From the NCBI GenBank assembly GCA_963735035.1, contig CAVTJJ010000004.1, positions 928,001-992,000 of the forward strand: a stretch of 64,000 nt of DNA, given 5' to 3'. The first letter of the stretch is position 1; each line of letters opens with the position of its first letter. The translations under genes and the position numbers were made by a program. The notes under the pieces are model-generated. The model saw nothing but the letters and a program-made list of their open reading frames with translations. It ran no database searches and was not told the DNA's origin. Origin of the DNA: an uncultured candidate division Zixibacteria bacterium. Lineage in GTDB: Bacteria > Zixibacteria > MSB-5A5 > GN15 > FEB-12. Positions 1 to 46,033 of the stretch are shown in pieces.

Positions 1-1269
1 GGGCAGGGCAATAACGCCTGGTATGTGCTCGATAACCTCTACTGCTATTGGATAAGCGGCAATATCTGTCCGTATGAACAGGAGGATGTGACCATTCACA
101 TCGAGCCGCAGCGAACCCCAAGTATAACTTACTACGGCCGCACGCAGGATGACAGTGCGGGGGACAACGACGGTCTGGCGGAAGCCGGTGAAACCATTGG
201 TATGGCCGTTACAATAACAAACACGGGCGAGATCGCGACAAATGCCACGGGCCTTTTGTCAACTACCGATCCCTACCTCTCAATTACGACCGCGACAGCG
301 CCTTTCAACCCTTCTTTCGGCTGGGGCGAAATGAGCACCTCGACTACCCCCTTCGCGATTGGCATAAATAGCTCCTGCCCCAATCCCCATATTGCTCTGC
401 TCAATTTGCAGGTAACCGACACGACCGAGTATTCGATGACCCAAACCCTTCCGATGTTCATCGGTACCAAACCGGGCTGGTCTGATGATCTGGAGATCGA
501 CCAGGGGTACTGGGATCACCATTCCATCCGGATGTCGTACTCGGATGAATGGCATTTGGAAACGAGCCGCACACACAGTGGAAGCACCAGTTTGAAGTTC
601 GGTGGAGTGGGATTGGCCAACTATTCCAACGCCTCCGACGGCGGTCTGGTGACGCCTCCTTTTCTCCTGGCGGCCGGGTCAAAGCTGAAGTTCTGGCACT
701 GGATGAGGGCCGAGAACGATGCCGGGACGGCGGCCTGGGATGGAGGCATTGTCATGATTTCGAACGGCGATGGGAACTGGACTCAGATTTTCCCCGAGGG
801 AGGATATCCGTACACAATTCTCCGGAACGCCGAGAGCCCGTTTGAATTCGGTACCCCATGTTATTCCGGCAGTTTCGACTGGTCCGAGGCCGTTTTCGAC
901 CTTTCGGCCTACTCCGGTGTGGTGCAGATCATGTTTAGGTTTGGAGCCGACGGATATGTCAATTTCGAGGGCTGGTATGTGGATGACATTTGGGTCGGTA
1001 CGGGAACCTGTTGCCAGAGTCGGGTAGGAGATGCCAACGGCTTGGGCGGCGACGAGCCGACTATCGGCGACATCAGCGTCATGATAGACGCCAAATTCAT
1101 TACGGGAACATGTGACGGCATCGTCACTTGTCTGTCTGAAGCTGACATGAATCAATCCGGTGGCTCTGATCCGGTGTGCGATGACATCACAATCGGCGAC
1201 ATATCAATTCTGATCGATTACCTGTTCATTACCGGGTCGGCTGGTGTGACGCTTCCGAACTGTTTGTAA
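1..1269 (+). CDS. 5'-truncated secreted protein: Ig-like region, immune-inhibitor-A/MAM-like jelly-roll domain, C-terminal dockerin-like domain (possibly a peptidase)
   Basis: Frame is open from base 1 (GGG CAG GGC AAT...), so the start lies outside the window. Motifs FWHWM..E...WDGG and FRFG.D.....EGWYVDD; C-terminal CC..RVGDANG...EPTIGDIS.MID / EADMNQSG...ITIGDIS.LIDYLF duplication. Confidence 0.75.
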   Translation, partial: GQGNNAWYVLDNLYCYWISGNICPYEQEDVTIHIEPQRTPSITYYGRTQDDSAGDNDGLAEAGETIGMAVTITNTGEIATNATGLLSTTDPYLSITTATAPFNPSFGWGEMSTSTTPFAIGINSSCPNPHIALLNLQVTDTTEYSMTQTLPMFIGTKPGWSDDLEIDQGYWDHHSIRMSYSDEWHLETSRTHSGSTSLKFGGVGLANYSNASDGGLVTPPFLLAAGSKLKFWHWMRAENDAGTAAWDGGIVMISNGDGNWTQIFPEGGYPYTILRNAESPFEFGTPCYSGSFDWSEAVFDLSAYSGVVQIMFRFGADGYVNFEGWYVDDIWVGTGTCCQSRVGDANGLGGDEPTIGDISVMIDAKFITGTCDGIVTCLSEADMNQSGGSDPVCDDITIGDISILIDYLFITGSAGVTLPNCL

Positions 1270-1293
1270 ACGATAACGAGCTTGATTATGCTG

Positions 1294-1327
1294 AACGGCT
1301 GCTCTGACCGGGGCGGCCGTTTCCTTT
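1294..1327 (+). terminator. Probable intrinsic terminator
   Basis: AACGGCTGCTC / GGGCGGCCGTT stem (with G-U pairs) followed by TCCTTT, about 25 nt after the stop codon. Confidence 0.55.
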
Positions 1328-1487
1328 AGCGTGAATTTATGCTCTTCGGCGGGCTATCTGGCGGTCAAGCACAACTCTTGCTATGTCGTTGCAATTCCGG
1401 GGTCGATGCACTATCATTGGCCGATGGGGCGCGGCGTGGTGTTTATAATCGGCATGTGGAAGTAACCTGGGTATTGAGACGGTTGAT

Positions 1488-7046: not shown

Positions 7047-9065
7047 ATGTTCCAAAGAGTCTGTTCAAGATTGTCGTCCAATTTCCGTTGGGGAGTGAGT
7101 CTCGTACTCGCGGCGCTACTTATTAGCGGTTCGGTTCGGGCGGCGGGAGAAGACCCGCCGGCGACTGCTCCCACCGGTCCTGAAGGCTGCGCCTGTATCG
7201 GCACGGTCGGCAACGTTAACTGTGACTATAAAGACGAGGTCACGGTGGCCGACTTGGCGCTGCTGATCGACCATATCTTCATAAACGGAACCCGGCTGCC
7301 CAATCCGGCTGAAGCCAATATCAACGGCGACCCTGCCGGTGAGATCACCCTGGGGGACGTCTACATGCTAATAGACCATCTCTTCATTTCAAGGGTGCCG
7401 CTGCCGGACTGTCCTAAACCGTACAACAACCCGCCGGACACGCGATTTATCGGCTTCTCAGAATACTTGCCGTTTGTCAACAGTGTCGGGCCGGGAAACT
7501 GGGCCACGGGTGTGCGCCTGAACTGGGCGGCGAACGATCTGGTCGACCACGCCTATGACGATCCCTCGTTTGCCTTCGAATACCGTCTTTACGGACCCTA
7601 TACTGATTCGGTCTACGATCAGATAATACATTCATTTCAATTCATAGTGTTCAGGTCGTACGACGGTCAAATGCTCAAGACGAGACAGTACCCATTAAGT
7701 ATGTACATCACTTGTGACACGACCTGGCTTCCGGGCGGTATTCGCCAGATAGATTGCGATACAGTTCTCGTAGATACTATTGATGGCACAACTTCCTTCG
7801 GCTTTTTCGACACCTTGTTGGATGTTGAAGATCCGAGTTTCCTGGCCAATCCAGAGTTTAATCGCCTGGTTCCGATGCCTAGGATGGGTGACAACGCCTG
7901 GACTTACGCCATGGGGGACACGCTCTACAATCTTTTCGCCGATCACCCGTCCGATACGACTGTCAGGGCCAATTTCATCGCCTGGGTGCGGGCGAGAGAC
8001 CCGGAGGATTCGACCGTATACGATCCTACGCCGGCGTTCAAGAGAGCGCAGGTGATTGAACCCAAATTCGAGCGCGATGTGGCTGTTATTGATTTTGGCT
8101 CACCGGCATATGAGAATACCGCCAAATACAGCTGCCAACTTGCTTATTGGGCAGGTGCAATACCCCTATGGGCGGCACATGCCGGTCTAACGTCAGATAT
8201 CCAGTTCGACAAGGCCTTTGATATAAGAGATTACGGAAGTTTCATGCAATCTTTGTATGAGAGCGCGGAAACCAAGTTACTTGCTTTTGCTCTAAAGCAC
8301 AAAGTAGTCATCATCATCCAAGATGCAGCCATGTCCGGCGCCTGGAGTTACGGAGGCGTCCGACAACTGGTCTTGTATCAAGCCATCGACGTTGGTACGA
8401 ACGTTTGGGTGGCGGCCAGAGTACCGCTCGGCAGGCACGAGTCTGACAGACCTCCCGCAACCGACACTGCCACGTGGGCTTATCAATACTACTTTGGGGT
8501 CCAACAAGTCGCGTTCCCGGGTTGGGGTTCCTTTCTCTATAGCGCTTCGCATTGCGGGCTACCGCGCACTGAACACTTTATTGGGGCCAACTCCCTTGAT
8601 ACTTTGCGCTGGCCAAACCTGTCAATTGACACCGCCCTTCTTCGGACTCAATACAAGTGGGCTGGATGCGTGCCGTCAGAGGCTTGCTATACTGATCCTG
8701 AGTGCAATCCTAACAACTGTTTTCCATTCTTTCCATTCGCTGATTCTGCTTTTGCTTTCCTCGGCGCCCTGCCGCAGGTTGGATGGATGGTGCGGACCTA
8801 TGACTCCGAATGCATGTACACCTTCAAGTCGCTCTATGGCGCGGTACATCCAATTGATCCCCAACTGAGTTATGATGGTCGCCCGGTTATGGTCCGGATG
8901 GACCGGGGGAGTTTCCGGACAGTACACTCGCTCTTTACTCCGTTGGCCCTGGAAGCAACGTCAGGGCAGCAGTTGGTGGATTCAATCCTGAGCTGGCTCT
9001 ATGAGAAATGGCTGCCCGGCAATAGCGGTCCAAAGGTCAAGACCGCGGTTGAGGGGAGGGAGTAG
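7047..9065 (+). CDS. Secreted protein with an N-terminal dockerin-like domain
   Basis: Signal peptide (...LLISGSVRA) followed by CACIGTVGNVNCD..DEVTVADLALLIDHIF / EANINGD..GEITLGDVYMLIDHLF; the remainder is unassigned. Confidence 0.75.
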   Translation: MFQRVCSRLSSNFRWGVSLVLAALLISGSVRAAGEDPPATAPTGPEGCACIGTVGNVNCDYKDEVTVADLALLIDHIFINGTRLPNPAEANINGDPAGEITLGDVYMLIDHLFISRVPLPDCPKPYNNPPDTRFIGFSEYLPFVNSVGPGNWATGVRLNWAANDLVDHAYDDPSFAFEYRLYGPYTDSVYDQIIHSFQFIVFRSYDGQMLKTRQYPLSMYITCDTTWLPGGIRQIDCDTVLVDTIDGTTSFGFFDTLLDVEDPSFLANPEFNRLVPMPRMGDNAWTYAMGDTLYNLFADHPSDTTVRANFIAWVRARDPEDSTVYDPTPAFKRAQVIEPKFERDVAVIDFGSPAYENTAKYSCQLAYWAGAIPLWAAHAGLTSDIQFDKAFDIRDYGSFMQSLYESAETKLLAFALKHKVVIIIQDAAMSGAWSYGGVRQLVLYQAIDVGTNVWVAARVPLGRHESDRPPATDTATWAYQYYFGVQQVAFPGWGSFLYSASHCGLPRTEHFIGANSLDTLRWPNLSIDTALLRTQYKWAGCVPSEACYTDPECNPNNCFPFFPFADSAFAFLGALPQVGWMVRTYDSECMYTFKSLYGAVHPIDPQLSYDGRPVMVRMDRGSFRTVHSLFTPLALEATSGQQLVDSILSWLYEKWLPGNSGPKVKTAVEGRE

Positions 9066-9067
9066 TG

Positions 9068-11491
9068 ATGAAGCGACTGATCAACTTAGCGATGACGGCC
9101 GCTTTGATAGCGGTGGTGTCGGGGTCAAGTGTAGCCCGAACGAATTTCGAGCGCGAAAAGAGTATTAGTCAGGCGGCCACTCCTTATCCGGCCTGGTGTA
9201 GCGTGAATCACGATATAGGCAAGATCGGATTTACCATCAGCAACGACGGCACGTTGGGCAATCTGAATTACGGAGAATGGACTGTCGACTGCTTCACTGG
9301 AAAGCCGCTTCTTCAGGGCGAGTACCCAATAGGCAGTAATAACATGTATTTCTGGGGCGGGGCTCTCTGGATCGGCGCTGTTGTGGGAACCGATACTCTG
9401 GTCTCTACCGGCGCCGATGGCTGGGCCGTAAGAGGCAGTGAGCTCAATCCCGATTTCTATGAATACGGTGGGGGGATGCAATACCGCTCCACGATCGACC
9501 CAGATAAGCCTACTTTTGAAGGAGCGATATCCGAGCAGGATTACATCGCTGTCTATCGCGACACCTGCAAGTCTTGTCAAGGGGGCGAAATAGATGAAAT
9601 AGAACATCGCGCTCACATCCCGATTAACATTGAAGTCACCCAGCGTTCTTTCGCCTGGAGCTACCCGGTCGCCGAAGACTTCATCCTTATAGATTATTCG
9701 ATCAAGAACATTGGGAATAGACCCCTGGAAGATCTGTACATCGGCTTGTTAATGGATCTGGATATTCATGACCTGTTCAACCAAGGAAATGGTGCTCTAG
9801 ATGATATTTCCGGACTCTGGTCTGGAACATATTCAGCGTCCAACGGATCAGGATGTCAGACTTCGCTTGATGTCGAGATGCCCTGGAGCGCCGACAACGA
9901 CGGTGATCTTAATCAGCAGACTCCCGTGTGGAACACGGTGCCTCATGTCTCCGGGATTCGACTGCTCGACATGGGAGGAAACGCCCCTCAGACCACTTTC
10001 AACTGGTGGGTATCAAACAATAATAGCCCTCAATACGACTGGGGGCCGATGCGGCGAGTCAACCCCCGTGATTTCAGTACTGGTGGTATGGGAAGTCCAT
10101 CCGGCGACAATAACAAGTACTACCTCCTCAGCAATGGTGACCGTGACTACGATCAATACAGAACGGCCACAATTCCGGCGGACGATTCGATCTGGTTGCC
10201 GCCCCCGGTTGATGGGGCACAATTATGGTCTACAGGTCAGGACACGAGGTATCTGGTTTCCAGCGGCTCAATCAATCTGGAGCCGGGGCAGTCCGTGCCG
10301 CTGACTCTGGCTTTCGTGTGCGGCGAGAACCTGCACTCCAGCGGCGCCAATTTCCTTAATCTGCCGTACAATCCCGACGCCTACTTCGCGGGCCTCAATT
10401 TCAGCGATTTCATTTCCAACGGCGTTTGGGCCGGATGGGTATATGATAATCCCGGTATTGATACCGATAGCGATGGCTACGCCGGCCAGTATCAGCTATG
10501 TGGCGACGATACGCTCTGGTACAAGGGTGACGGTGTCCCCGATTGGCGCGCCGCGTCAAGGCCTATGGCTCCGGTTACCTGGGTTGAGCCGCGAGATCAG
10601 GCACTGTATGTTCGCTGGAACGGCTTCCAAAGTGAAAATCAACTTGATTGGGCCAGCCGCCAGACGAACTTCGAAGGGTACCGGTTGTATTTGTCCACCA
10701 CCGGGGTTGCCGGGAGTTTTGCGGCCATTGGCTCCTATGACATAGAAGACTATTACCGCTACTATTGGGATTTCGACCGTTCGAACTGGACCCGCTCTCT
10801 GGGACGCTTGACTCTGGAGGAGTCGCGATGTCACTATGCTCCTTCCGGCTGCACCGATCAGTCGTGGTATCCACTGGATTTCACGAGACAGGCGCCGTAT
10901 GTCATGCCCGGTTTTCCCGATTCACTGTTCTACTTCGAGCCCGTTATGACCAACTCGTCCATATTTGGTTTGGAGACGCCTTTTCTCAAGAGGTTCCCCA
11001 ACGCCCCTTGTCCAGGCTACGGAAGTCCTTCCGATGTTCCGTCGGATTCGACGGACGTATATCTTACCGAGGATGGCTTCTTCAAGTACTATGAATACGA
11101 AATGCTCCTCGAAGACCTCATTGTCGGACAGCCGTATTGGGTATCGGTAACGACGTTTGATTTTGGTTCGATGGCGGCCGGAGCCGCACCGGCTGAATCC
11201 CCGATCCTTGGAAACTCCTTGAAGCGATGGCCGGCCGGTGATTGCTGCAATGGTACGGTCGGCAATGTCAACTGTGACGCTGGGGAAGAGATTGGGATAG
11301 GCGATGTGTCAGTGCTGATCGATTTTCTGTTCATCACTGGCGAACCCCTTTGTTGTTTGCAGGAGGCTGATGTCAATCGGTCGGGGGGAGCAACTCCTAT
11401 CGCGAGCGACATTTCGCTATCCGACATTTATGTGCTCATCGATTATCTGTTCGTAACCGGACCGTCGCTCGGACTGCCCAGTTGCCAATAG
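9068..11491 (+). CDS. Secreted protein with an FN3-like region and C-terminal dockerin-like domain
   Basis: Translationally coupled to the upstream gene (TAGTGATG); signal peptide; VRWNG...FEGYRLY...YWVSVTTFD FN3-like pattern; CCNGTVGNVNCD...IGIGDVSVLID / EADVNRSG...ISLSDIYVLIDYLF. Confidence 0.8.
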   Translation: MKRLINLAMTAALIAVVSGSSVARTNFEREKSISQAATPYPAWCSVNHDIGKIGFTISNDGTLGNLNYGEWTVDCFTGKPLLQGEYPIGSNNMYFWGGALWIGAVVGTDTLVSTGADGWAVRGSELNPDFYEYGGGMQYRSTIDPDKPTFEGAISEQDYIAVYRDTCKSCQGGEIDEIEHRAHIPINIEVTQRSFAWSYPVAEDFILIDYSIKNIGNRPLEDLYIGLLMDLDIHDLFNQGNGALDDISGLWSGTYSASNGSGCQTSLDVEMPWSADNDGDLNQQTPVWNTVPHVSGIRLLDMGGNAPQTTFNWWVSNNNSPQYDWGPMRRVNPRDFSTGGMGSPSGDNNKYYLLSNGDRDYDQYRTATIPADDSIWLPPPVDGAQLWSTGQDTRYLVSSGSINLEPGQSVPLTLAFVCGENLHSSGANFLNLPYNPDAYFAGLNFSDFISNGVWAGWVYDNPGIDTDSDGYAGQYQLCGDDTLWYKGDGVPDWRAASRPMAPVTWVEPRDQALYVRWNGFQSENQLDWASRQTNFEGYRLYLSTTGVAGSFAAIGSYDIEDYYRYYWDFDRSNWTRSLGRLTLEESRCHYAPSGCTDQSWYPLDFTRQAPYVMPGFPDSLFYFEPVMTNSSIFGLETPFLKRFPNAPCPGYGSPSDVPSDSTDVYLTEDGFFKYYEYEMLLEDLIVGQPYWVSVTTFDFGSMAAGAAPAESPILGNSLKRWPAGDCCNGTVGNVNCDAGEEIGIGDVSVLIDFLFITGEPLCCLQEADVNRSGGATPIASDISLSDIYVLIDYLFVTGPSLGLPSCQ

Positions 11492-11977: not shown

Positions 11978-12089
11978 CCCCGCTCTTTCCGAGTACATCG
12001 TAGAAAGCAGACTCAAGAAATCTGCATATTTTCTAATAAACTGACCGATTATGCTTGACAGCCTAAGTACAATAGGTTATATTAGAACT

Positions 12090-14063: not shown

Positions 14064-17000
14064 ATGAAGCGACTTCTTGTACTGACATCGCTGTCGGCTC
14101 TGTTGCTATTGATGTTGTCCGCCGCGGCAGCCGCTCGTAGCAGCACCAGGGCTGACCTTGAAGACTCCAAACGATCGGCCGATATCGGCCAGTTTAATCT
14201 TGCCGGGTCTCGTCCCTTGATGGGAAAAGAAGAACCGATGTCGTCTAACCACGTCCCGGCTCAAGCCGGTCGAGTGGTCAAACGGCCGGTGGGTAGCTCC
14301 CAGTCTCCCGAGGCCGGCATTGGAGTAGGTGTGAGCGTGGCGCTCACTTTTGACGACGGACAATACGGATTTCCGATCGGCCGCCATGTCAGCCATTACT
14401 GGAATGGCGAGGTAGGCGAGACGGTTCAAGCCGGTGTGCACTTTGCCTATGAACTGTGCTCCGACACCGTGCCCGGCAATGCAATAGCTTCCCCGATCAT
14501 TTCCGGATACAACGTTTACGACGCGACCGTCACCTCAGGCAACTGGCCTCGCGGCCAGGATTTGGGCTGCGGTCTGCAATCGGCCGATACAGCGGGAGCC
14601 GGGAAGTGGGTCAATCTCGACGTTCTGGGGAACCAGAATGCCGTCATGACCGCAACAACTTCCTTCTTCCGCCCCCTCCGGCCGGCGGGCGACAATATGT
14701 TATTCTTTCAGGGGGCTCAGTTCAACTGCACTTACGATCCCCGGACTTCCCTGAACACTACTTTCATTGACTCGACCGTAGCTACCGGTTACCGGGCCAA
14801 CTTCTCCAATCCGGGCGTAGGTAACTACAGCGTCCAGCCCGAGGTTGCCACGCAGTTCAACGGCTCTACTACGATTACGCACGTGCTGATCGGTGAAAGC
14901 GAAACCGTGGCCGGTCCAGCGGGTAACGACTCTTACGTTACCGCTGCGGAGTATCGTATTTTCCAGTACTACCGTAAGACGGGTAATACGTCTGGGGGAA
15001 GCTGGGGCACCGGCAAGATCATTGATAGCGTTATGGATGTGTACGGCACCAACGGGGTCACCCTGGCAACGTCACCCAATTCCGGTAAAGTGTGCGTCTC
15101 ATACTCCAACCCGGGATATTGGGGGTGTCGTCTTGACGGCGATAATGGACAGTACGATACCGATGTCTTTTACCGTGAATCTCTTGACTACGGTCTGACT
15201 TGGAATCCGAAAGTAAACATTACGACGTACCAGAACGCGATCGCAGGCGATCCCAAGCACTACAAGGCCTGGGTCGAATCACCGGCGCTGTACGATGCCA
15301 ACGACGATCTTCATATTATTTGGACCGGCACCCGGACCTCGGCCGATCCTTATTTCGACGGCTACAACTGGAACGATTTCGACACCGATATCTACCACTG
15401 GGCCCGTTCGTCGAATGAAATTGTCAAGTTGGCGAAGGGCACTTACCTGAATGATGACATGCTGACCGGTTCCATCAACACTCTTCATTGCGGTTTTGGC
15501 GGCGTCATGTCAGGGTACATTGCCTTTATCTGGTTGTCGGAATGCGATGGCAAGCTGTATTGCGTCTGGAATCAGATGCACGAGCTGGCCAATCATGGCG
15601 ATTACACTACGACACCTTCTCTCCTCGAGGATTGTGCCTACACCGGCAGTACGCGCAGCAATGCCAACTGGGAGATTATGATGTCGGTCGCTCGCATAAA
15701 TTCTAGTTCGTTGTGGGATGCCGCCCGCCACGTTTCTGGAGCCGGAGCCGGAACTCATACTCCGAATTGCGGTCTGGCGGGTGATCCGCTGGCCGTCGGT
15801 GGCCAGTGTGGTAACGAATTCAAGCCTTCGGTCGAAAAGTATGGCTTGGATGAGACCGGTCTGGGTTTGACCTGGCCGGCCGCCTCGAAGGTTGACTTGA
15901 CCCCCGCGGGTCAGCCGGCCTACACCGGCGACTTCTACTTGAATATGGAGTACATGGACGATCAGTTCCCCGGATATTTTGTACAGGACCTGAACGGACG
16001 AAACGATGTCGGAACACTCAACTCCGAAAAGTGGGTCCGGTTGGCCTGTGTGAACCCGGTGGAAGCCTCTCAGATCAACATTTCTCCGAAGAGGCTGGAA
16101 TGGCCGCTGTGGGTGGCGCTTAATGCCAGCAATAACCTGACCATCACGGTTGTCAATGAGGGAAACGTCACGCTCAACGTTACCGAAATTGGGACCGCCG
16201 GCGGAAGCTGGCTGGACGTGAGTCAGCATCCCACCACAGGCAGCCCGTTCCAGGTTCCTGCGGGTGTTAACAACACCGCCAGCTTTGATGTGGTTGTCAA
16301 TGCGACTGGTATATCTCAAACCCAGTGGCTTGATGGCCAGGTCTGGCTGAAGTCGGATGCCGCCAACAATGACTCAATGGTGGTGCCGATTCATATTCTG
16401 GCCGCCGACAATGTCGAAGCGGTTCGCTGGGATACTGTAATGACCCACGCCAACATGTTTGACGAATTCTACGAGCCCACCGGCGAATGTATCGCTCTTG
16501 CGGTCGGTAACCTGGGCGAAGTCGGCTATGGTGCTTTCAGTCAAGGCAGTGTAAATCTTGACTACGCTGAGTCAGGCTTGGAATGTGGCACTCGCGCGCG
16601 TGACAAGCAGTACCTTATGAGTGGGACGGCCTTTACTCTTCTGGCGACCAATTCCTCGGGAGCCGGCGCCGAATTGACGACGGCATTCAACGATCCGAAT
16701 CAGGCAGACGAGGCCGGGTTCGATCCGACATCCGCCAAGGGTTCCATCGGCGGCGGTCTGGCCGTCACCGGTGACTATGACTCTACCTACACCGGTCGGT
16801 TTGTAAACAAGGATACGACTATCGCCATGGAGCGGACTGTGTACGGTCCTCGGTTGACACCGTCCAATTCAGTTATCAATTTCATGGTTGTGTATACCAA
16901 GGTGTATTCGGCCGATGGCTTAGGCCACAATCACCTGACGGTTGGAAACGCCTGCGACTTCGACGTTCCGGCCGATAGCCCGCCGAACAACAACTCGGCG

Positions 17001-17774
17001 GTCTCGACAACCGGTGGATTCGTGTACTTTCAGGGTACCGACACTACCGGAGGTACACCCTGCCAGACGAACTTGAACCGCTTCGCGACCGAAGCGTTTG
17101 GCGGCGGTTACACATCGGCCGAGTTGACCGGCAGCCCGTGCGCCAATAACACGACATTCTACGGCTCCAATTCGCTGTATCAGTTGATAATGGAGGACAC
17201 CACTCATCTCCGGAATGGTACTCCGCTGGTGCCGAGTCAGCCGAACCCGCTGGTCTGGTGGGCCGAAACCGGTATCGGCGGTACTAACGCTTCCGCACTC
17301 CAGGACACTGACCTGGCGTTGATCACGACCTACGTTCGGGATTATAACCTGGGCGCATCCGATACCCTGCACTACTGGACAATCCTGTCCACCGTGCGCA
17401 ATGGCACACTGGCCAATCTGGAGAGCCAGGTTGCCTACGCCAAGAGCTGGTATATGGGCACGGTTCGTGATTGTTTTGGCCCACCGCCTTGCTGCACGGA
17501 AAGAGTCGGCAACGCTAACGGTACTGGCGGCGAGACTCCGACGATCGGTGACATCAGCGTGATGATCGATGCCAAGTTCATCACGGGTGCCTGTATCGGC
17601 TCCGGTGCGGGCGCCAACATCGTTTGTCTAGGTGAAGCTGACATGAACCTGTCCGGTGGTCAACACCCGACCTGTGGATCCATTACGATCGGTGACATTT
17701 CGCTGTTGATCGACTGTCTGTTCATTACAGGCGAGCCGCCGTTCGTTCGCAGCACCTGTATGTCAATAGACTAA
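14064..17774 (+). CDS. Large secreted/surface protein, paralog 1 (Asp-box propeller-like region, Ig-like domain, dockerin-like tail)
   Basis: RBS GAAAGGA; signal peptide; Asp-box RESLDYGLTW; ITVVNEGNVTLNV...WL Ig/BACON-like pattern; C-terminal dockerin-like duplication. Confidence 0.85.
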   Translation: MKRLLVLTSLSALLLLMLSAAAAARSSTRADLEDSKRSADIGQFNLAGSRPLMGKEEPMSSNHVPAQAGRVVKRPVGSSQSPEAGIGVGVSVALTFDDGQYGFPIGRHVSHYWNGEVGETVQAGVHFAYELCSDTVPGNAIASPIISGYNVYDATVTSGNWPRGQDLGCGLQSADTAGAGKWVNLDVLGNQNAVMTATTSFFRPLRPAGDNMLFFQGAQFNCTYDPRTSLNTTFIDSTVATGYRANFSNPGVGNYSVQPEVATQFNGSTTITHVLIGESETVAGPAGNDSYVTAAEYRIFQYYRKTGNTSGGSWGTGKIIDSVMDVYGTNGVTLATSPNSGKVCVSYSNPGYWGCRLDGDNGQYDTDVFYRESLDYGLTWNPKVNITTYQNAIAGDPKHYKAWVESPALYDANDDLHIIWTGTRTSADPYFDGYNWNDFDTDIYHWARSSNEIVKLAKGTYLNDDMLTGSINTLHCGFGGVMSGYIAFIWLSECDGKLYCVWNQMHELANHGDYTTTPSLLEDCAYTGSTRSNANWEIMMSVARINSSSLWDAARHVSGAGAGTHTPNCGLAGDPLAVGGQCGNEFKPSVEKYGLDETGLGLTWPAASKVDLTPAGQPAYTGDFYLNMEYMDDQFPGYFVQDLNGRNDVGTLNSEKWVRLACVNPVEASQINISPKRLEWPLWVALNASNNLTITVVNEGNVTLNVTEIGTAGGSWLDVSQHPTTGSPFQVPAGVNNTASFDVVVNATGISQTQWLDGQVWLKSDAANNDSMVVPIHILAADNVEAVRWDTVMTHANMFDEFYEPTGECIALAVGNLGEVGYGAFSQGSVNLDYAESGLECGTRARDKQYLMSGTAFTLLATNSSGAGAELTTAFNDPNQADEAGFDPTSAKGSIGGGLAVTGDYDSTYTGRFVNKDTTIAMERTVYGPRLTPSNSVINFMVVYTKVYSADGLGHNHLTVGNACDFDVPADSPPNNNSAVSTTGGFVYFQGTDTTGGTPCQTNLNRFATEAFGGGYTSAELTGSPCANNTTFYGSNSLYQLIMEDTTHLRNGTPLVPSQPNPLVWWAETGIGGTNASALQDTDLALITTYVRDYNLGASDTLHYWTILSTVRNGTLANLESQVAYAKSWYMGTVRDCFGPPPCCTERVGNANGTGGETPTIGDISVMIDAKFITGACIGSGAGANIVCLGEADMNLSGGQHPTCGSITIGDISLLIDCLFITGEPPFVRSTCMSID

Positions 17775-21400: not shown

Positions 21401-22185
21401 TGAACACGACCGGTGTTTCCAGTGCTGGTTTCGTTTACGTACAGGGTACTGACACGGTTCTTCACACTGCGTGTCAGACGAACTTGAACCGGTTTGCCAC
21501 TGAGGCTTTTGGTGGCGGTTACACCAAGGCTCAGTTCAATGCCGACCCGTGCGCGAACGATTCCACCGGCTATTTTGGTTTCAGCGCAGCCGACCAGTTG
21601 ATCATGGTCGACACGACGCATTATCGCAATGGCACGCCTCTCGTCCCGGTCCAGCCGGATCCGTCTCGTTGGTGGGATGTGACGAAGGTGCCGGGCCTGA
21701 ACGCCGATGCTTCGACTCAGGATCAGGCCGTCTGGTTGACCTACAAGCAGGATTACAACTTGTTGGCCAGCGACACGCTGCACTATTGGACCGTTATGAC
21801 TACGGTTCGCAATGGTTCGTTGTCTGATCTGGAAGCTCAGGTTGCGTATGCCAAGAACTGGTACAAGGAAATTCGAGGCTGCGTACCCATAAATCCGGCC
21901 TGCTGTATAGGGAAGGTCGGCAACGCCAACGGTACAGGCGGCGAGACTCCGACGATCGGTGACATCAGCGTGATGATCGATGCCAAGTTCATCACGGGTG
22001 CCTGTATTCCTTCGGGTCCGGGTGCCAACATCGTTTGTCTAGGTGAAGCTGACATGAACCTGTCCGGTGGACTTCACCCGACCTGTGGATCCATTACGAT
22101 CGGTGACATTTCGCTGTTGATCGACTGTCTGTTCATTACAGGCGAGCCGCCGTTCGTTCGCAGCAACTGTATGTCGGTGGACTAG
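18472..22185 (+). CDS. Large secreted/surface protein, paralog 2
   Basis: RBS GAAAGGA; signal peptide; Asp-box-like RESFNRGVTW; same architecture as paralogs 1 and 3. Confidence 0.85.
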   Translation: MTRKALITLCVAVLLTGLLTLSAWAATNTKVDIADGKQLDKINSFNVGPYPMEDRAAFEEDVALQSTASSSGALRVPVGSAASPNVGTGVGVSIDLTWHDAQWTRGQGRQIAHWWNGATDETAEVSVHFAYMTMPDSLETTAPYTNTGYNVYDATVTSGNWPRGQDIGCDLQSADTIGQAVAASMDMTYNGRAVIASQGQHFRTKASGAGAGTRLSSNFIYYQGSEFNCTYDPRSNLNVTWIDSTVYRPLFLDQTAGSYSREPQVKTQWDGTNTVVHLLLGENTAGVTLTGDAYADDLSSYKTWSYFRKVGNTSAGTWSSGQIIDSIWFSWTELAAAAYPNTGVAVVYVNPSYYGCLLNNGADLDVWARESFNRGVTWQPAYSVTNYTNAIAGDPNHFTCWLEAGCMFDSEGDLHVYWTAKPTSADPYFDGFNWSDFDENLYHWEKTNDGAVPGIGDAVKVANGNFMNDDMLTGSMNTFHCGFGGSNAGYLAFSTMGECDGKLYMVWSQIHERANRMAWRNAATQPAPGVLDDCSYTGNRYAMANWEILMSVAQLGSSTLWDAARNITNTYTPNCGLAGDPDAQGPCGSEWKPSIERQALDETGLTLTWPVAAAVDMSPTHDYAAGHYLNMEYMDDQYPGPTNWSDRTNPPSTLNSEKWVRLACVEPVEASQINVIPKSVAWPQWVELGTTKNFTITVVNDGNVTLNVTEIGTAGGSWLGVSQHPTIGSPFAVTAGVVRTRTFDLIANATALSSTQWLDGEIWLKSDAANSDSISVAIHLLAAANVEATKWDTVTTHAYMFDAFFEPAGACVALGVGNDGDLGWGAGTSGSINLDYRESNLECGTRQRDAMYLASGSAFTLMATSSTGTGAELTQVTNDANQADETGFDPTPEKTMTGGLAASGKYDSTYTGKFVNRDTTIAFERVVYGPRSATPATSTINFVIVHTWVYSADGAAHNHVTIGDVRDWDVPADSVPLNTTGVSSAGFVYVQGTDTVLHTACQTNLNRFATEAFGGGYTKAQFNADPCANDSTGYFGFSAADQLIMVDTTHYRNGTPLVPVQPDPSRWWDVTKVPGLNADASTQDQAVWLTYKQDYNLLASDTLHYWTVMTTVRNGSLSDLEAQVAYAKNWYKEIRGCVPINPACCIGKVGNANGTGGETPTIGDISVMIDAKFITGACIPSGPGANIVCLGEADMNLSGGLHPTCGSITIGDISLLIDCLFITGEPPFVRSNCMSVD

Positions 22186-25800: not shown

Positions 25801-26561
25801 CTGGTTTCGTTTACGTACAGGGTACTGACACGGTTCTTCACACTGCGTGTCAGACGAACTTGAACCGGTTTGCCACTGAGGCTTTTGGTGGCGGTTACAC
25901 CAAGGCTCAGTTCAATGCCGATCCTTGCGCGAACGATTCCACCGCCTATTTTGGTTTCAGCGCAGCCGACCAGTTGATCATGGTCGACACGACGCATTAT
26001 CGCAATGGCACGCCTCTCGTCCCGTTCCAGCCGGATCCGTCTCGTTGGTGGGATGTGACGAAGGTACCGGGCCTGAACGCTGATGCCTCGACTCAGGATC
26101 AGGCCGTCTGGTTGACCTACAAGCAGGATTACAACTTGTTGGCCAGCGACACGCTGCACTATTGGACCGTTATGACTACGGTTCGCAATGGTTCGTTGTC
26201 TGATCTGGAAGCTCAGGTTGCGTATGCCAAGAACTGGTACAAGGAAATTCGAGGCTGCGTACCCATAAATCCGGCCTGCTGTATAGGGAAGGTCGGCAAC
26301 GCCAACGGTACTGGCGGCGAGACTCCGACGATCGGTGACATCAGCGTGATGATCGATGCCAAGTTCATCAGCGGTGCCTGTATATCTTCGGGTCCGGGTG
26401 CCAACATCGTTTGTCTAGGTGAAGCTGACATGAACCTGTCCGGTGGACTTCACCCGACCTGTGGATCCATTACGATCGGTGACATTTCGCTGTTGATCGA
26501 CTGTCTGTTCATTACAGGCGAGCCGCCGTTCGTTCGCAGCACCTGTATGTCAATAGACTAA
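22866..26561 (+). CDS. Large secreted/surface protein, paralog 3
   Basis: RBS GAAAGGA; signal peptide; Asp-box RESYDRGINW; long stretches identical to paralog 2. Confidence 0.85.
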   Translation: MTRKALLTLCVAVLLSGLLTLSAWAATNTKADIADSKQLDMINSFNVGPYPVEYRQATTEMGLEPVTPASGAIRMPVGSAASPNVGTGVGVSIDLTWDDAQWTWGKGRQIAHWWNGATDETAEVSVHFAYRASPDTVTGYPFGNTGYNVYDATVTSGNWPRGQDIGCDLQSADTLGTGSSPSMDVTFNGRAVIGTLATHFRSIGTDRLYDNFIYYQGSEFNCTYDPRSNLNVTWVDSTMYRPLMMQNVAGTYSRDPIVKTQWDGTNTITHLLLGENVAEATNLTGDAYVTDLGYYTWTYFRKVGNTSAGTWTNGRIIDSIWFVWTELAAAPYPNTGVAVVYTNPTYYGALLENGGDMDVWARESYDRGINWAPSYSVTKYTNALAGDPNHFTAWLEAGCMFDSEGDLHVYWTAKPTSADPYFDGFNWNDFDENLYHWEKTNDAAAVGLGDAVKVANGNFMNDDMLTGSMNTFHCGFGGSNVGYLGYSTMGECDGKLYLVWSQIHERANRYPWRDAATQPAPGVLDDCSYTGNRYAMANWEILMSVAQIGSSTLWDAARNITNTYTPNCGLAGDPDAQGLCGSEWKPSIERQALDETGLTLTWPVAAAVDMSPTHDYAAGHYLNMEYMDDQFPGPYAWGTGRTNPPGTQNSEKWIRLACVEPVEASQIDVMPENIAWPQWVELGTTKNFTITVVNDGNVTLNVTEIGTAGGSWLGVSQHPSVGSPFTVTAGVVRTRTFDLIANATALSSTQWLDGEIWLKSDAANIDSIAVKVHILAAANVEATKWDTVTTHAYMFDAFFEPVGACVALGVGNDGDLGWAAGTSGSINLDYRESGLECGTRQRDAMYLSSGSTFTLMATSSTGTGAELTQVTGDANQADETGFDPTPEKTMTGGLAASGKYDSTYTGKFVNRDTTIAFERVVYGPRSATPATSTINFVIVHTWVYSADGAAHNHVTIGDVRDWDVPADSVPLNTTGVSSAGFVYVQGTDTVLHTACQTNLNRFATEAFGGGYTKAQFNADPCANDSTAYFGFSAADQLIMVDTTHYRNGTPLVPFQPDPSRWWDVTKVPGLNADASTQDQAVWLTYKQDYNLLASDTLHYWTVMTTVRNGSLSDLEAQVAYAKNWYKEIRGCVPINPACCIGKVGNANGTGGETPTIGDISVMIDAKFISGACISSGPGANIVCLGEADMNLSGGLHPTCGSITIGDISLLIDCLFITGEPPFVRSTCMSID

Positions 26562-29196: not shown

Positions 29197-29220
29197 ACAG
29201 TCATTCGAATTAGATGCCGT

Positions 29221-29562: not shown

Positions 29563-30621
29563 GTGAGAAGATCCGTTATTGGTGTATTACTCACTTTTGT
29601 ATTCGCGGCGGCAACGACAGTCGCCTCAGGCTACGAAGTTACCAAAGTAATTGAGATCGGTCCGGCTGTGCCTCTCTTGACTGGGGGTGCGCTCAAGTGG
29701 AGCCCCGACGGTACCATGCTGGCGTATTTCGCGAACAACTACCTGATGGTCTCAGACACGCTGGGGAATAGCCGCCAGGTGGTTGGCACAGAAGGACTTA
29801 CTCCCATGCGCGCCGAATGGGCGTCAAACAATGAGTTTGCGGTGAATCTGGCGAATCGTGAGGACACCGACTCGATGCTGTATCGTCTTGTCGTATATGA
29901 CATCGTGAGTGGCTCTCAGAGGTTGGTGCGGGAATGTTGGAGGACACGATGGAGCCTGCTTCCTGGCCACAGCGGCTTTGATGGCCCCTATGTCACGATG
30001 GAGGGTAACGCCTATTATGAGGAAGTCGTGATTTCCGGACTTGAGGAAGGAGAACTCAAGGAGAAGCTCAAGAGCACGGTTGTTAACAAAACCAAGACTC
30101 CTTTGTCATCGGCCAAGGGGATCTCAGAGGTGCTGGCAAGTAATCACCTACAGGTCTGGGGGAAGGATGGCCTTTACTCTGTGAATTGGGCTGGCGCAGA
30201 TTCGACGCAGCTTTCTTCCGAGGACGCTAGCGGTGCGCTCAAGGTTGGTATCACAGCGTCACCAGACCGCACTTGGATCTTCAGACGCGGCCGCCTCATG
30301 AACAGAATTACGCACGATACAATTGATGTTAGACAATTTACAGGAAGTGTGCCGGCGGGCACCGATTTGTGTGGATACAGCCGGATAAGCTTCAATCCGC
30401 GTTCTGAAGAGATTCTCTTTCAGCACTATTGTGAAAGTGGAGATACTCTTGTGATCGACAGGATTGCCACTTTCGATTATTCCAGCAAAGTGTTTGCTTT
30501 GCTTGATACTCTGACAGGCATCGAAGGAGGTACGTCTCCGGTTTATGCACCGGATGGGCGGATGATTTCCTTCTGTGCCCGTGGCAAGGCTTATATCATC
30601 TGGCGTGGGGTGACGCCATGA
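29563..30621 (+). CDS. Secreted TolB-like/PD40 beta-propeller protein
   Basis: RBS GGGAGG and GTG start; signal peptide; WSPDG..LAY and [12 protein letters not shown] repeats. Confidence 0.7.
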
Positions 30622-33041
30622 AACAAATAGCAATATTTGGTGGCATATGTCTACTTATGCTATTCCTTGGCGTGTCTGAATCTCGTGGGGATTTTTCCGG
30701 GCCTTGGGTCATGTTTGATCCGGGACACGGAGGCGATGCTCCAGGGAGCCTCACGCCCATTGACAATTACTTCGAAAAACACATAAATCTCGAAGTGGCC
30801 GACTCTTTGATAGCGTGGCTAGATCGGTTTGGTTGGAAGGATACTTTGCACTATGTCTTCACGAGATACAGCGATTCCACGGTCTCGAATTCCGATAGGG
30901 CGGAGAGGGCGGATGACCTCGATGTTGGCAGGTTCGTTTCAATTCATCACAATTCTGCGGACACATGCCCACCAACTCAACGTACCGAAACGTTGTATTC
31001 AACACTCAGCAACTGTGACAACGGCTCCTATGCCGGTCATGTACGTGACACAAGCGAAACCTTAGCTCTAAAGCTCGGTTATCGTATCAGGGACGATGCC
31101 TTTAGATACCACCTTCATGATCCCACTAATACCGGTGCCGCGCACACTGTTCTCAGCAGGACCTTTATGGAATCGGCGATCACTGAAGCCTCCTATACCT
31201 GTGATGCTGAGGAAGCAGGCAAATTCCATAACAATTATGACCTGCACGTTGACAAAGAAGCCGTCGCAATCTATAATGGTTGGTACAGCACTCACATTGG
31301 GCAAGGCTTGGGAGTTGTTGAGTATGCGTATCTCGATCGCTTACCTATCGACTCCTTGGATTGCGATCAGCACGTGCAGATTACAATAGGAACTAATGGT
31401 GACCCCATTGATTTACGCCCCCCGTACGAAGGGTGCTGGGCTCAGGAAGAGAACATACGCCTCTTTGCATACCCGTTTGTCAAAGACGGATATCAGTACT
31501 ACTTTCATCATTGGGAATGGGTTGATTGGGAGACGCGGGATGTCTATGAGATCGCCAGCTACAATCCGTATGACTTCCTTGTGTTTCCGGATTGGAACAG
31601 CGTGCACTACTATCGTGCCGTATTCACCGGAGGTCGGTTTACAGGTCAGTTTGTCACCCCTTGGATTACTCCCACAGCGATTCAGAACAATAATCCATAT
31701 CTGATTCAGTGGAACATAGGAGAGGGCGTGCTAAACACCTGTTCCCTTTATGTTGATTTCAGTTCCAACGGCGGTTCGTCATGGTCCACAATACTGGGTC
31801 CCGTGCCCTACGACTATGGCTATGCGAGAAGCGCCCAATCCGTTGATGCTGCGAACCCCGAGGATAGGGCCGGAAGATACTTGTGGAATGTCCCTGCGAT
31901 CCAGTCTGACAATTGCTATCTGCGTATTCGGGCGAGTGACTACGTTGATAATCAGACAACATTCCAGTCAAACAAGTTTTCGATTGCGTCCTGCCTGCTG
32001 GCTACCGGCTGGCTTGGATGGACGAAGCTGGCCTCGCCGGCAAGAACTTACACATTTAGCGCAAACCCTGCACCGGGAATCCCTATCACAAGTCGCACGT
32101 TCATTTTTGGTGATGGTACTACTTTGAACTCGACTAGTAACCAGGTGAATCACACCTATGTCCATGGTGGGAGGTTTGAACCGTCCTTAACCATAACCAA
32201 CGGTTGCGGCACGTACACGTGTGAGTCAACGGATCTGCTCTATGTTGATTGTGGATATGTCACCCCGGACGCCGACGGTGACGGAGTTGCAAACGACTGT
32301 GACCGATGTCCCACGGTATCAGACCCCTTGCATCTCGATATCGACAATGATTATGTGGGCGACGTGTGCGACAATTGCCCTGCCTTGAGCAACTGGGATC
32401 AGCTCGACAGCGATGGTGACGGCAAAGGTGATGTCTGCGACAATTGCCCGACGGTTTCTAACAGCAGTCAGACTGATACTGACGGCGATGGTATCGGCGA
32501 CGCATGTGACAACTGTCCATCGGCCTATAATGCCAACCAACTGGATACGGACCATGACGGCAAAGGGAATTTGTGTGACAATTGCCCAACCGTTTACAAT
32601 CCGAACCAACTCGACAGCGACGGTGACGGCATAGGTGATGCCTGCGACAACTGTCCCACCGTGAGCAACGCCAATCAAGCAAACAGCGACGGCGATGCTC
32701 TTGGCAACGCCTGTGACAACTGCCCGCAGGACACGAACGCGAATCAGGCTGATTTCAATAGTGATGGTATCGGTGACGCCTGCTGCTGTGTCGGCAGGGT
32801 AGGCGATGTCAACGGGATTGGAGGAGATGAGCCGACAATAGGTGACGTGCAGCTACTGATAGATGTCCTATTCGTTAGTTATACTTGTGAGGGATTGATA
32901 GGCTGTTTCGCCGAGGCTGATATCAATCAATCCGGCGGTGCCTCACCGTCCTGCGTCGATCTTTCTATATCAGACATATCCGTTCTTATCGATTATGTCC
33001 TTATCACCGGGCCGTCAGCAATCCTGCCGAACTGTCAGTAA
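30618..33041 (+). CDS. Secreted N-acetylmuramoyl-L-alanine amidase (Amidase_3) with Ig/PKD, thrombospondin type-3 repeats and a dockerin-like tail
   Basis: DPGHGG, EKHINL, SIHHN and ITEA Zn/catalytic motifs; FGDG...HTY...G.F...LT PKD; about 8 DxDxDGxGDxCDNCP repeats; dockerin-like duplication; ATGA overlap with the upstream gene. Confidence 0.88.
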
Positions 33042-36257: not shown

Positions 36258-36318
36258 TGTACATCCTTTCCCTGATCAGGGGCGTTCGTACGAGCTATTT
36301 GCAAGAGTCCCATTCCCC

Positions 36319-36490
36319 GTCATTGCGAGCGTAGATGGCCCGACGCAAGGCGGGTCATCGTAGTGCGGCAATCTCAAGAACGTGGGCGGCACACTGCCTG
36401 CCCTCGACTTGATCGGGGGCCCCGTGTGTCCCTCACGGAATTGAGATCGCCACGTCTCGCCCGCGAAGCGCGGTCGAGACTCGCGATGAC
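36319..36490. repeat. Palindromic interspersed repeat, GTCATTGCGAG...CTCGCGATGAC family, copy 1
   Basis: Terminal IR plus internal GGCAATCTC/GAGATCGCC; the 50 nt at 36441-36490 match 46371-46420 at 49/50. Confidence 0.8.
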
Positions 36491-40799: not shown

Positions 40800-40827
40800 C
40801 AATCATTGAACGAGATACGAGGCCAAA

Positions 40828-43018: not shown

Positions 43019-43040
43019 AGTCAGGTGATGGAGAAATAAT

Positions 43041-44468: not shown

Positions 44469-44548
44469 TCTGCCCCCAACCGCGCACACCGGCTCGGCTT
44501 TCCAGACTTGGCTGGGCCGGTGTCGCACCCATTCCCCAAATACACCGA

Positions 44549-44577
44549 TTGACGGTGACGCTGTCTACCTGTATATT
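44549..44577 (+). promoter_or_regulatory. Sigma70-type promoter
   Basis: TTGACG-17 nt-TATATT. Confidence 0.6.
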
Positions 44578-44716
44578 GAAATGTGTTTACGTGGCCGGTC
44601 GGTCCGAATTCCACGCAGCCCGCTTCTCTAACTTACTGTAGGTCGTCGCACGGAGCGAAAATTCTGCGCGAGAACTGTGCCGACTCAAAGCGGCGATGAA
44701 CGCGTCAGGAGGACAT

Positions 44717-46033
44717 ATGCGAGTCAGAAATTCCTTGAGGGCGATTGTTATCTTTTGCGCCCTAATCATGTCAACCCCGTCTGTCTTGATTGCCGGCGGC
44801 GGTGAATTTCACCGTGTACCGGCCGGCCCAAAGAACGAGACTGCTATTGCTAAGAATGCCCTTGCCGGATGTGAACTCCTCCGACACTGGGTCGATGATA
44901 CCATTCTTGGTTACAGTTCCTCGTACGAGACCGGCGAGCGCACTGTTACCTATTTCGACCCGGCTGCGTGCGGATCGGGGCCATATCCGTTCAGCATCAC
45001 CGGCTTTTCGTTCACTCTGCTTGACCCTCTGAACATCTACGATTCCAGAACCTACAAATGGCCGGTGCAACTGGCGGTGGTAGTCTACGATATGTATTCG
45101 CCCGCCGACAGTTGCCTCGGGCCGGGTATGGAATTGTATCGCCTTCCGGTCTTGTGCGACTCTGCTTCGTTCGCCTATCCGGCCGTCGGCCAGGTGACAT
45201 TTCCAGCCCCGCTCTGTGTCGACCGTCCGTTCTACATAGGCATCGAATACACGGATACTTTCACTGGTTTATTGCCGTCAGTGATGTTCGATGTCAGCTC
45301 GCACCCCGGGCTTTGTCACATTTACCAGTATTTCATGAACAACTGGTACGGTTGGTATTATTTCTGGCCCGACCCAAACCACATGCCCGGCTTTCCCTTC
45401 TACTGGGTCCAGGGGGAGACGCAAGCGGTAAGCTGTCTTCCCGATGCCGACTTGGATGGCGTCCCTGATTCCGAGGACAACTGCCCGTCGGTTGCTAATC
45501 CCGATCAAGCGGACAACGACGCCGATGGTCTGGGCAATGCCTGTGATAATTGTCCGTCCATTGCAAATCTGGATCAAGTCGATAGCGACTCCGACGGTGT
45601 GGGTGACGCCTGCGACAATTGCCCCTCGGTCACCAATCCGGAACAGCATGATAACGACCATGACGGACTCGGTGATGTGTGTGACCCCGACGACGATAAT
45701 GACGGGGTGCCGGACGCCTCGGACAATTGTCCGATGGTGGCCAATCCAGCGCAGGAGGACGCGAACGCCAACGGTATCGGCGATGCCTGCGAATGTCTGG
45801 GGACTACTGGTAACGCCAACTGTGATCCGGCGGACGACGTGACAATCGGCGATATATCTATGTTGATCGACCACCTATTCATTAGTGGAGTCGATCTATG
45901 TTCGATCCCGGAAGCGGATGTCAACCAGTCGGGTGGTGTTGCGCCGACTTACGATGATATTACTATCGGTGACATCTCGATGTTGATCGATCATTTGTTT
46001 ATGTCGAATATCCCTCTGCCGAATTGCCTGTAG
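44717..46033 (+). CDS. Secreted protein with thrombospondin type-3 repeats and a dockerin-like tail
   Basis: RBS AGGAGG then ATG 44717; signal peptide; DxDxDGxGxACDNCP repeats; [23 protein letters not shown] / EADVNQSG...ITIGDIS.LIDHLF. Confidence 0.85.

Follow-up and report, generated by a model that had tools for sequence, protein, structure and literature searches.

Clostridial and ruminococcal type I dockerins (PF00404; PDB 4fl4, 2ccl, 4dh2, 3ul4 and 5m2o) are two-repeat loop-helix modules with a terminal place on secreted proteins, and their canonical calcium-binding loop has 12 residues of the pattern D.N.DG.....D, with ligands at positions 1, 3, 5, 9 and 12. Non-cellulosomal dockerins are widespread and their partners are often unidentified. 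In Clostridium thermocellum, OlpA and OlpC (PDB 3ul4 and 4dh2) each combine one cohesin with a surface-anchoring domain made of SLH (S-layer homology) modules and hold single dockerin proteins, the binding having been demonstrated. The cellulosome itself is defined by dockerin-fused glycoside hydrolases (PMC13487519). Here we describe a Cys-braced dockerin-like module from an uncultured candidate division Zixibacteria bacterium, a diderm relative of Zixiibacteriota with a 3.6 Mb genome (97% complete; coded G000). It was encountered in eight open reading frames (ORFs) of a window of 64,000 nucleotides, positions 928,001 to 992,000 of contig CAVTJJ010000004.1. The dockerin occupies the place that the C-terminal domain (CTD) of type IX secretion systems (T9SS), or an IPTL-CTERM tail, has on homologous cargo. 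We think it likely that the dockerin tethers each cargo, via Ca-dependent binding, to CTD-anchored surface cohesins, so that a shared socket replaces a private sorting tail.

Two assemblies proposed for other diderms resemble this system. For Candidatus Stygibacter (Cloacimonadota; PMC8542988) the available part of an in-silico proposal combines signal-peptide enzymes with C-terminal dockerins, peptidases among them, and a cohesin scaffold with a CTD. The likeness to G000 lies in the FCB (Fibrobacteres-Chlorobi-Bacteroidetes)-related diderm host, the dockerin enzymes and the cohesin-CTD protein. That account, in the same part, names four enzyme types and one 3,755-residue tandem-cohesin scaffoldin with carbohydrate-binding modules in one genus, whereas in G000 about 90 proteins carry the tag, the one-cohesin anchor is conserved phylum-wide, the dockerin is Cys-braced and it swaps places with the CTD. 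The 'planctosome' of the Nemodlikiaceae (Planctomycetes; PMC6461901) is, in the portion of text available, a hypothetical outer-membrane cohesin-dockerin assembly of M12B and M14 peptidases with adaptors. It shares with G000 the peptidase cargo, the non-cellulolytic diderm host and the adaptor proteins, but it is a small system put forward as a hypothesis only, and a lamin-tail-domain anchor is proposed for it in place of a T9SS CTD. The T9SS CTD (TIGR04183/PF18962) is likewise a folded C-terminal tag, borne by Sec-exported cargo, on which surface localisation depends, and machinery genes of this system are present in G000; however, the dockerin is unrelated to it in fold and dockerin cargo lacks it. 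The accessible text of PMC11285876 describes T9SS cargo as requiring a CTD, and its list of phyla with a possible T9SS does not include Zixibacteria. A full-text literature search, with most subscription papers and supplements outside its scope, returned no paper joining Zixibacteria or Zixiibacteri- with dockerin, or Zixibacteria with type IX secretion, and a term search in the available text of the cellulosome genome survey PMC11557425 did not find 'Zixi'.

An initial annotation of the window had claimed a shared module in eight ORFs, and a hidden Markov model (HMM) built from the eight copies located all of them at the positions given in the table below. The copies are 46-54% identical to the last one and have 15 invariant columns. 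This HMM matches 79 ORFs genome-wide, mostly at E<1e-25, which together with the open frames rules out chance or artefact as the source of the module, and upon iteration it recovers 82 modules in 81 ORFs. In the window the module is C-terminal in seven of the eight carriers and follows the signal peptide in ORF 7047. The signal peptides reported for the seven complete ORFs were judged by eye, and signal-peptide-like starts are indeed present; a heuristic for such peptides was too loose to be used, flagging 67 of 86 dockerin-only ORFs but also 286 of 693 background ORFs.

An AlphaFold2 model computed from an alignment of 51 copies (pLDDT, the predicted local distance difference test, 93.4) has helices at residues 20-32, 40-43 and 60-72, that is, a duplicated loop-helix fold with a linking helix. 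The dockerin-like fold suspected from the sequence is borne out by two structure searches. In Foldseek 27 top matches precede the first unrelated row, and every one of those shown is a dockerin chain (template-modelling score 0.5-0.7 by query, E 0.08-4.7, none <0.001). In VIA-align, run against 48,161 chains, the 14 best rows are all dockerins, led by 4fl4_A (Z 9.7, root-mean-square deviation 1.8, 65 residues aligned), and the first unrelated row has Z 2.5. An EF-hand or a TSP3 repeat was considered as the identity of the module and set aside, the fold searches pointing to dockerins instead. Searching PDB sequences with the module profile gave nothing significant, the best dockerin having E 1.0. 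Pfam Dockerin_1 (PF00404) gave 10 weak matches to the 51 copies, none significant (best E 0.0075), and the first copy scored 13.3 bits on it, below the gathering cut-off of 22.9. More canonical dockerins of G000 do clear that cut-off (13 of 14 matches), and the Dockerin_1 annotation stands on 3 of the 120 best database relatives of the module. Judged by its modelled fold, the module is a divergent type I-like dockerin, not a Pfam-level member of Dockerin_1.

Each half of the module carries T-I-G-D-I-S-x-L-I-D-x-x-F. Since the same T-I-G-D-I-S-x-L-I-D helix face recurs in both halves, two equivalent binding modes are suggested. The repeats are thus symmetric as in type I dockerins, and the Ca-ligand pattern agrees in part, with Asp/Asn at loop positions 1, 3 and 12; the module has I-G where C. 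thermocellum dockerins have S-T. The final Asp and the preceding Thr/Ser are present in 73 of 73 modules in both repeats (the same motif served to locate the repeats), and D.N.[ST]G is kept in 67 of 67. The D.N.DG.....D loop read into the module initially is not kept to the letter: another residue usually takes the place of the Asp at position 5, and two insertions, one of about 2 residues and one of about 7, lengthen the loops. Unlike type I dockerins, the module also has covarying Cys pairs. In 124 modules from G000 and its relatives, copies that are related and whose counts are not independent, the first and middle Cys occur together in 107, one alone in 3 and 3, and neither in 11. The first optional pair is complete in 42 and absent from 82, with neither partner ever alone; for the second, both are present in 19, one alone in 5 and 2, and neither in 98. 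Modules have from four to eight or more Cys, and the bracket is retained in all inspected loci of the host's family. This gain and loss in pairs fits the disulfide stabilisation that had been proposed, the covarying pairs probably being disulfides. By elimination, the remaining N- and C-terminal Cys, the second and the last, probably form a covalent version of the dockerin terminal clasp, while the two optional pairs are nearly exclusive of each other. The clasp is described as an intramolecular contact of the N- and C-termini that stabilises the Ca-bound fold by non-covalent Trp-Pro stacking, disulfides going unmentioned in the available text (PMC3821032). VKOR was not found in G000; DsbA and DsbB were not searched for.

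Sixty-seven of the modules score above 95 bits (strong copies, in 66 ORFs). Of these 62 stop no more than 15 residues short of the C-terminus, five are N-terminal or internal, and none of the 66 ORFs has the CTD of its own that is expected of T9SS cargo. Counting canonical dockerins and a third class, G000 has 96 dockerin ORFs, a few of which are pieces of frameshifted genes. Dockerin and CTD occur in one chain in 10 ORFs, nine of them also with a cohesin-like or adjacent X domain, and another 10 ORFs combine a cohesin-like domain with a dockerin in a CTD-less chain. Cargo was surveyed with Pfam on about 60 of the 96 dockerin ORFs, and many match no family. The peptidase families found are C1, C10, M1, M4, M14, M43, M64, S8 and trypsin-like, alongside TSP3, FG-GAP, SBBP propeller, beta-helix, PKD and Fib_succ_major domains. 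No glycoside hydrolase family appears among the scanned ORFs, and a cellulosome proper was rejected on this ground; the peptidases, the adhesin-like domains and the diderm host all set this cargo apart from that of cellulosomal dockerins. The module profile matches 127 of the 151 genomes of the phylum comparison set, including all 54 others of the host's family, and Pfam Dockerin_1 matches 149 of the 151, often with at least about 39 per genome. At E<=1e-10 the profile retrieves 1,193 clusters of a 50%-identity library, and the closest named relatives of the module lie in Ca. Zixiibacteriota records (six of eight loci).

Several smaller groups accompany this inventory. The third dockerin class comprises 10 ORFs, among them G000:C4:136502, C4:203441, C4:1077939 and C4:1241442. 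Most have the dockerin within a cassette that runs from a Cys-rich cohesin-like domain through the dockerin and an X domain of about 95 residues to a CTD. Three frames of 158-187 residues (G000:C4:1037338-1037811, C3:270814-271374 and C4:2585-3142) encode little beyond a signal peptide, a short segment and a dockerin, and could be caps or competitors for cohesin sites. Four dockerin or cohesin genes are split (G000:C4:908135/911341, C6:52059/52207, C6:497707/497999 and C6:703149/703492), as assembly indels or pseudogenes. At G000:C4:127972-167801 cohesin, dockerin and CTD genes cluster beside huge Ig-repeat proteins (frames of 3659 and 1576 residues).

As had been stated, the window contains no cohesin, but a search for cohesin-fold proteins found 28 ORFs with cohesin-like domains elsewhere in the genome, some bearing T9SS sorting domains. 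A CTD or CTD-like tail is present in 66 ORFs; 12 of them also have a cohesin-like domain, and six of these 12 lack any dockerin. The best candidate partner of the module is a protein of 276 residues (G000:C6:415932-416768), single-copy in G000, that consists of a signal peptide, one cohesin and a CTD, and it would be a one-cohesin anchor and not a large scaffold. Its domain model (pLDDT 90.8) retrieves cohesins in the first 27 Foldseek ranks shown, with ScaC, ScaB and OlpA on top (best E 1.2e-5, template-modelling score up to 0.72), and collagen-adhesin domains from rank 30. OlpA chain 3ul4_A is among the top matches (E 2.3e-5) at a sequence identity of 10-18%; unlike OlpA and OlpC, the Zixibacteria anchor is known from sequence and model, and its anchoring domain is a T9SS CTD. 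Against Pfam cohesin (PF00963) the domain scores 16 bits (E 0.014), under the cut-off of 24.1, which is passed at three other places in G000, and its CTD scores 43.7 bits on TIGR04183, over the cut-off of 23. Its named homologues are from Zixibacteria; the 29 best relatives are 47-74% identical, all 30 family orthologues have one cohesin and a CTD, and their alignment has 25 invariant columns. Two cohesin-like matches and a CTD, hence the two or more cohesins of a scaffoldin, are found in each of four further proteins (G000:C4:1510980, C4:139718, C4:143474 and C3:845421), and no long tandem cohesin array was found in G000. Complex prediction for one of the many possible pairs, the anchor cohesin with the dockerin, gave scores of 0.27 and 0.21, below the mark of 0.32, with controls not folded, and speaks neither for nor against binding.

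The T9SS genes of G000 that exceed curated cut-offs are SprA, PorU and about 10 of the PorV family. The GldM/PorM motor was not found, in a search that lacked a positive control, the controls giving no match either. G000 has three secretin clusters, one of which is type II-like, with GspE/F, pseudopilin, and GspM- and GspC-like genes; Pfam T2SSK gave 31 weak matches over the 151 genomes, mostly in frames of 500-780 residues, and also matched Gram-positive controls. In the window itself, a lipoprotein-like ORF on the minus strand (47721-48800) has a match to the SprA model that is confined to model positions 446-589 (E 4.5e-11), and by its sequence resembles a stand-alone piece of the T9SS translocon.

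At E<=1e-6 the anchor-cohesin profile matches 139 of the 151 phylum genomes. By family, it finds none in the five genomes of f9, the two of f13 and the one of f17, and is weak in three of the six of f14. Pfam dockerins number 0, 0 and 2 in three genomes, all of which belong to those without the anchor. A quick GyrA tree places f9, f13 and f14 in one clade (support 93) and f17 apart among anchor-bearing families. It is an unrooted tree of a single gene.

The tails of homologous cargo were compared across genomes. For the M14 carboxypeptidase, examined in 30 chosen genomes, 14 anchor-less and 16 anchor-bearing, the best homologue ends in a dockerin in all 15 anchor-bearing genomes with a match, at 16 of 16 loci. 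Thirteen of the 14 anchor-less genomes have a CTD there, 12 of them complete and one truncated where the CTD begins, and the remaining genome has a dockerin. Homologues of the C10 peptidase, several of which align to part of the query only, have 18 dockerins and two cut-off ends at 20 anchor-bearing loci; the 10 anchor-less loci have three CTDs, two IPTL-CTERM tails, one dockerin, one untagged end and three cut-off ends. For M4, 15 anchor-bearing loci comprise 12 dockerins (one by eye), one CTD and two cut-off ends, and the single anchor-less locus has IPTL-CTERM. The latter tail thus ends three C10 or M4 homologues in anchor-less genomes; on f9/f14 peptidase homologues it lies at L241:3190-3369, L245:1078-1266 and L348:2548-2727, and a motif search of G000 found none. 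The family of ORF 9068 shows the exchange within one genome: at least 14 full-length G000 paralogues end in a CTD-like tail and the window copy alone ends in a dockerin, while 30 homologous loci elsewhere have 28 CTD-like tails (22 by CTD HMM, six by eye), one dockerin and one cut-off end. Dockerin, CTD and IPTL-CTERM therefore occupy the same place on homologous cargo. The initial annotation had offered a docking tag and a replacement of the T9SS CTD as alternatives, and because the dockerin sits where homologous cargo has a CTD or IPTL-CTERM, the two now look like one thing.

Numbers of tails across the phylum run in the same sense. The 14 anchor-less genomes have 73-225 first-look CTD candidates each (median 137.5; 29-61 per Mb), roughly three times the 27-96 (median 50; <=33 per Mb) of the other 137 genomes, and for first-look dockerin candidates the two medians are 39 and 95. 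In five anchor-less genomes with SprA the CTDs number 75, 115, 128, at least 150 and at least 150; G000 has 44.

From the fold, the Cys pairing, the inventory and the tail swaps we infer binding, its partner and its location along the following lines. Sec would carry the cargo to the periplasm, where the dockerin would fold with Ca2+ and two to three disulfides would form. The dockerin would then bind to a cohesin. This cohesin would owe its own export to SprA/PorV and its subsequent attachment to the surface to PorU-type processing, and CTD proteins having two to several cohesins, as well as cohesin-dockerin adaptors, would add branching. The CTD-less cargo could cross the outer membrane via SprA on the cohesin, or via the type II-like system. 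The outcome would be a surface coat of varied proteases and adhesins that scavenges protein and peptidoglycan, and not a cellulosome. By analogy the system would work like a cellulosomal dockerin with an OlpA-type anchor, as a form of cohesin-dockerin display outside cellulosomes that stands out by its scale and by its alternation with T9SS and IPTL-CTERM tails. A bolder form of this proposal, which we regard as doubtful, makes the dockerin a second-order T9SS signal: cargo would dock in the periplasm on a cohesin-CTD carrier and pass SprA on it, and in most of the phylum a large part of the secretome would have gone over from CTDs to dockerins. Such carriage would explain why the dockerin stands in for the CTD.

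Several observations weigh against tethering to CTD-anchored cohesins. The Asp of loop position 5 is mostly missing, and the 10 CTD-less cohesin-dockerin ORFs may be adaptors or may be self-paired. The anchor matches in f10-f12, f16 and f19 are weaker (1e-7 to 1e-23) and were scored without a check of layout. Families f9 and f14, though without the anchor, still have 11-24 Pfam dockerins in the four genomes checked, mostly C-terminal and CTD-less, so that the anchor is not strictly required; other cohesin-CTD or cohesin-dockerin-CTD proteins of these families could be alternative anchors. Conversely, f7 has the anchor yet few dockerins in several genomes. The family of ORF 9068 retains its CTD-like tail in nearly all anchor-bearing genomes, and that tail matches curated CTD models weakly, at E 0.006 and 0.0015 in two of four proteins. 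Only three tail changes suffice for the M14 tree, in which a different paralogue stands for G066 and G090. The trade-off in tail numbers uses pre-filter candidate counts as a proxy, noisy for dockerins, with module-profile counts unlisted for four genomes. As the anchor-less genomes form about two lineages on the GyrA tree, they provide about two contrasts, and the swap and trade-off evidence together comes from two or three independent events only.

The extreme C-terminal place of most strong modules, like that of CTDs, and their substitution for CTD and IPTL-CTERM tails would also follow if the dockerin fold had taken on the role of a direct signal for export or sorting, recognised by a PorV-family shuttle or a type II-like machine, with the cohesins incidental. 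The number of PorV-family genes, the secretin clusters and the persistence of C-terminal dockerins in genomes without a detected anchor agree with such a signal. We nevertheless judge it unlikely. The five strong modules and the weaker one of ORF 7047 that are N-terminal or internal are incompatible with a C-terminal signal, the module conserves a symmetric helix face, and the conserved protein of only a cohesin and a CTD, which was not detected in any of the three genomes having 0-2 dockerins, has no evident job but binding.

Somewhat further from our expectation is a Ca2+-binding, disulfide-locked cap or self-association domain that stabilises proteins or glues them together or to minerals, with any cohesin pairing intramolecular. 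The loops are long and Cys-braced, and besides the 10 CTD-less cohesin-dockerin ORFs nine more with a CTD also carry a cohesin-like or X domain. Yet in about 76 of the 86 CTD-less dockerin ORFs no cohesin was detected alongside the dockerin, and a stabiliser is not expected to alternate with CTD or IPTL-CTERM tails or to vary inversely with the number of CTDs. A real docking that is periplasmic or vesicle-related, the cohesins not being surface-exposed, is very improbable: it would suit the CTD-less cargo with its undemonstrated export route, the amidase cargo, which could work on peptidoglycan in the periplasm, and the control-less failure to find GldM/PorM, but homologues of the same cargo have CTDs elsewhere, pointing to the surface, the candidate anchors bear CTDs, and SprA and PorU are present.

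Carriers of the module in the 64,000-nt window and the modules themselves, with positions counted from the first nucleotide of the window
Feature	Positions	Strand	Basis or remark
Secreted C10-family peptidase, 3' part, with InhA/MAM-like domain	1..1269	+	Peptidase_C10, E 1.9e-45 on whole ORF
Dockerin of the C10 peptidase, C-terminal, Cys-braced; six Cys including the optional inner pair	1003..1266	+	
Secreted protein, no assigned function	7047..9065	+	
Divergent dockerin of ORF 7047, N-terminal, without the middle Cys	7188..7415	+	
Secreted protein of a family usually ending in a CTD-like tail; this copy ends in a dockerin	9068..11491	+	
Dockerin of ORF 9068, C-terminal, where the family has its CTD-like tail	11237..11488	+	
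Secreted 1236-aa protein, tandem paralogue 1 of 3; no Pfam/NCBIfam family	14064..17774	+	
Dockerin of ORF 14064, C-terminal	17484..17771	+	
Tandem paralogue 2, 1237 aa	18472..22185	+	
Dockerin of ORF 18472, C-terminal	21895..22182	+	
Tandem paralogue 3, 1231 aa	22866..26561	+	
Dockerin of ORF 22866, C-terminal	26271..26558	+	
Secreted Amidase_3 + PKD + TSP3-repeat protein	30618..33041	+	Pfam
Dockerin of ORF 30618, C-terminal	32778..33038	+	
Secreted TSP3-repeat protein	44717..46033	+	ORF opens at 44696; start 44717 has the better ribosome-binding site
Dockerin of ORF 44717, C-terminal; copy used for folding (pLDDT 93.4)	45788..46030	+	

The window carriers amount to about six independent cargo types, three of the ORFs being tandem paralogues: the C10 peptidase, whose gene begins upstream of the window at G000:C4:926876, the amidase-PKD-TSP3 protein, the TSP3 protein and three families without a Pfam or NCBIfam match. 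The cargoes, initially called unrelated, are so in part: ORFs 14064, 18472 and 22866 are paralogues (the first shares 54-55% identity with the other two) and ORFs 30618 and 44696 (the latter starting at 44717) share TSP3, but the other types differ. The peptidoglycan amidase listed among them is confirmed by the Amidase_3 domain of ORF 30618, whereas Pfam detects the FN3 domain also listed there in none of the eight carriers. The Asp-box propeller-like cargo is reduced to a weak, BNR/sialidase-like lead to a beta-propeller in ORF 14064, with no family match. In an Atlas search its N-terminal part gave unnamed clusters at 0.89-0.90 and the sialidase/BNR lead at 0.81, and a Vps10-annotated match covers only its C-terminal third. 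ORF 7047 has a dockerin-less paralogue (G000:C4:1150084) downstream of SusC-like and PorV-family genes, and G000:C4:1145668-1152420 (L334) is one run of a SusC-like TonB-linked protein, the PorV-family gene and this paralogue.

The window also has other genes. A fusion of 1388 residues with kinase-like, TPR (tetratricopeptide repeat), GAF and sigma-54 activator parts (1488-5654, +) is followed by a small helix-turn-helix protein (6230-6838, +), and the pair, directly upstream of dockerin genes 7047-9068, may regulate them. Just upstream of dockerin gene 44717 is an ATP-binding cassette (ABC) system of two ABC-2 permeases and a NEW3-domain membrane protein (39300-44468, +). An IS1/IS240-like transposase among the dockerin genes (12051-12950, +) is single-copy in G000, and an IS110 element (59093-60151, +) has five full and one partial near-identical copies there. 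A major facilitator superfamily transporter (27732-29213, +) and an amidase (34509-36257, -) show, by eye, apparent frame loss near their C-termini, and in the intergenic stretches 36318-36490 and 46291-46420 two short segments of 50-61 nt are repeated at 88-98% identity.

The profile described here defines a dockerin class of 1,193 clusters that Pfam overlooks, and it names a specific partner pair, the module and the anchor cohesin, both short domains; disulfide-stabilised pairs of this kind may serve designer assemblies. The job of the dockerin becomes readable from evolution, as one and the same cargo ends now in a dockerin, now in a CTD or IPTL-CTERM, and the presence of a small cohesin-CTD protein goes along with the difference. 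One question that follows is by what route large proteins lacking a CTD exit a T9SS-bearing diderm. Were they carried on the cohesin-CTD protein, one conserved gene would export and anchor on the order of a hundred different proteins. More generally, the system points to a way in which a sediment phylum could make its surface rich in proteases.

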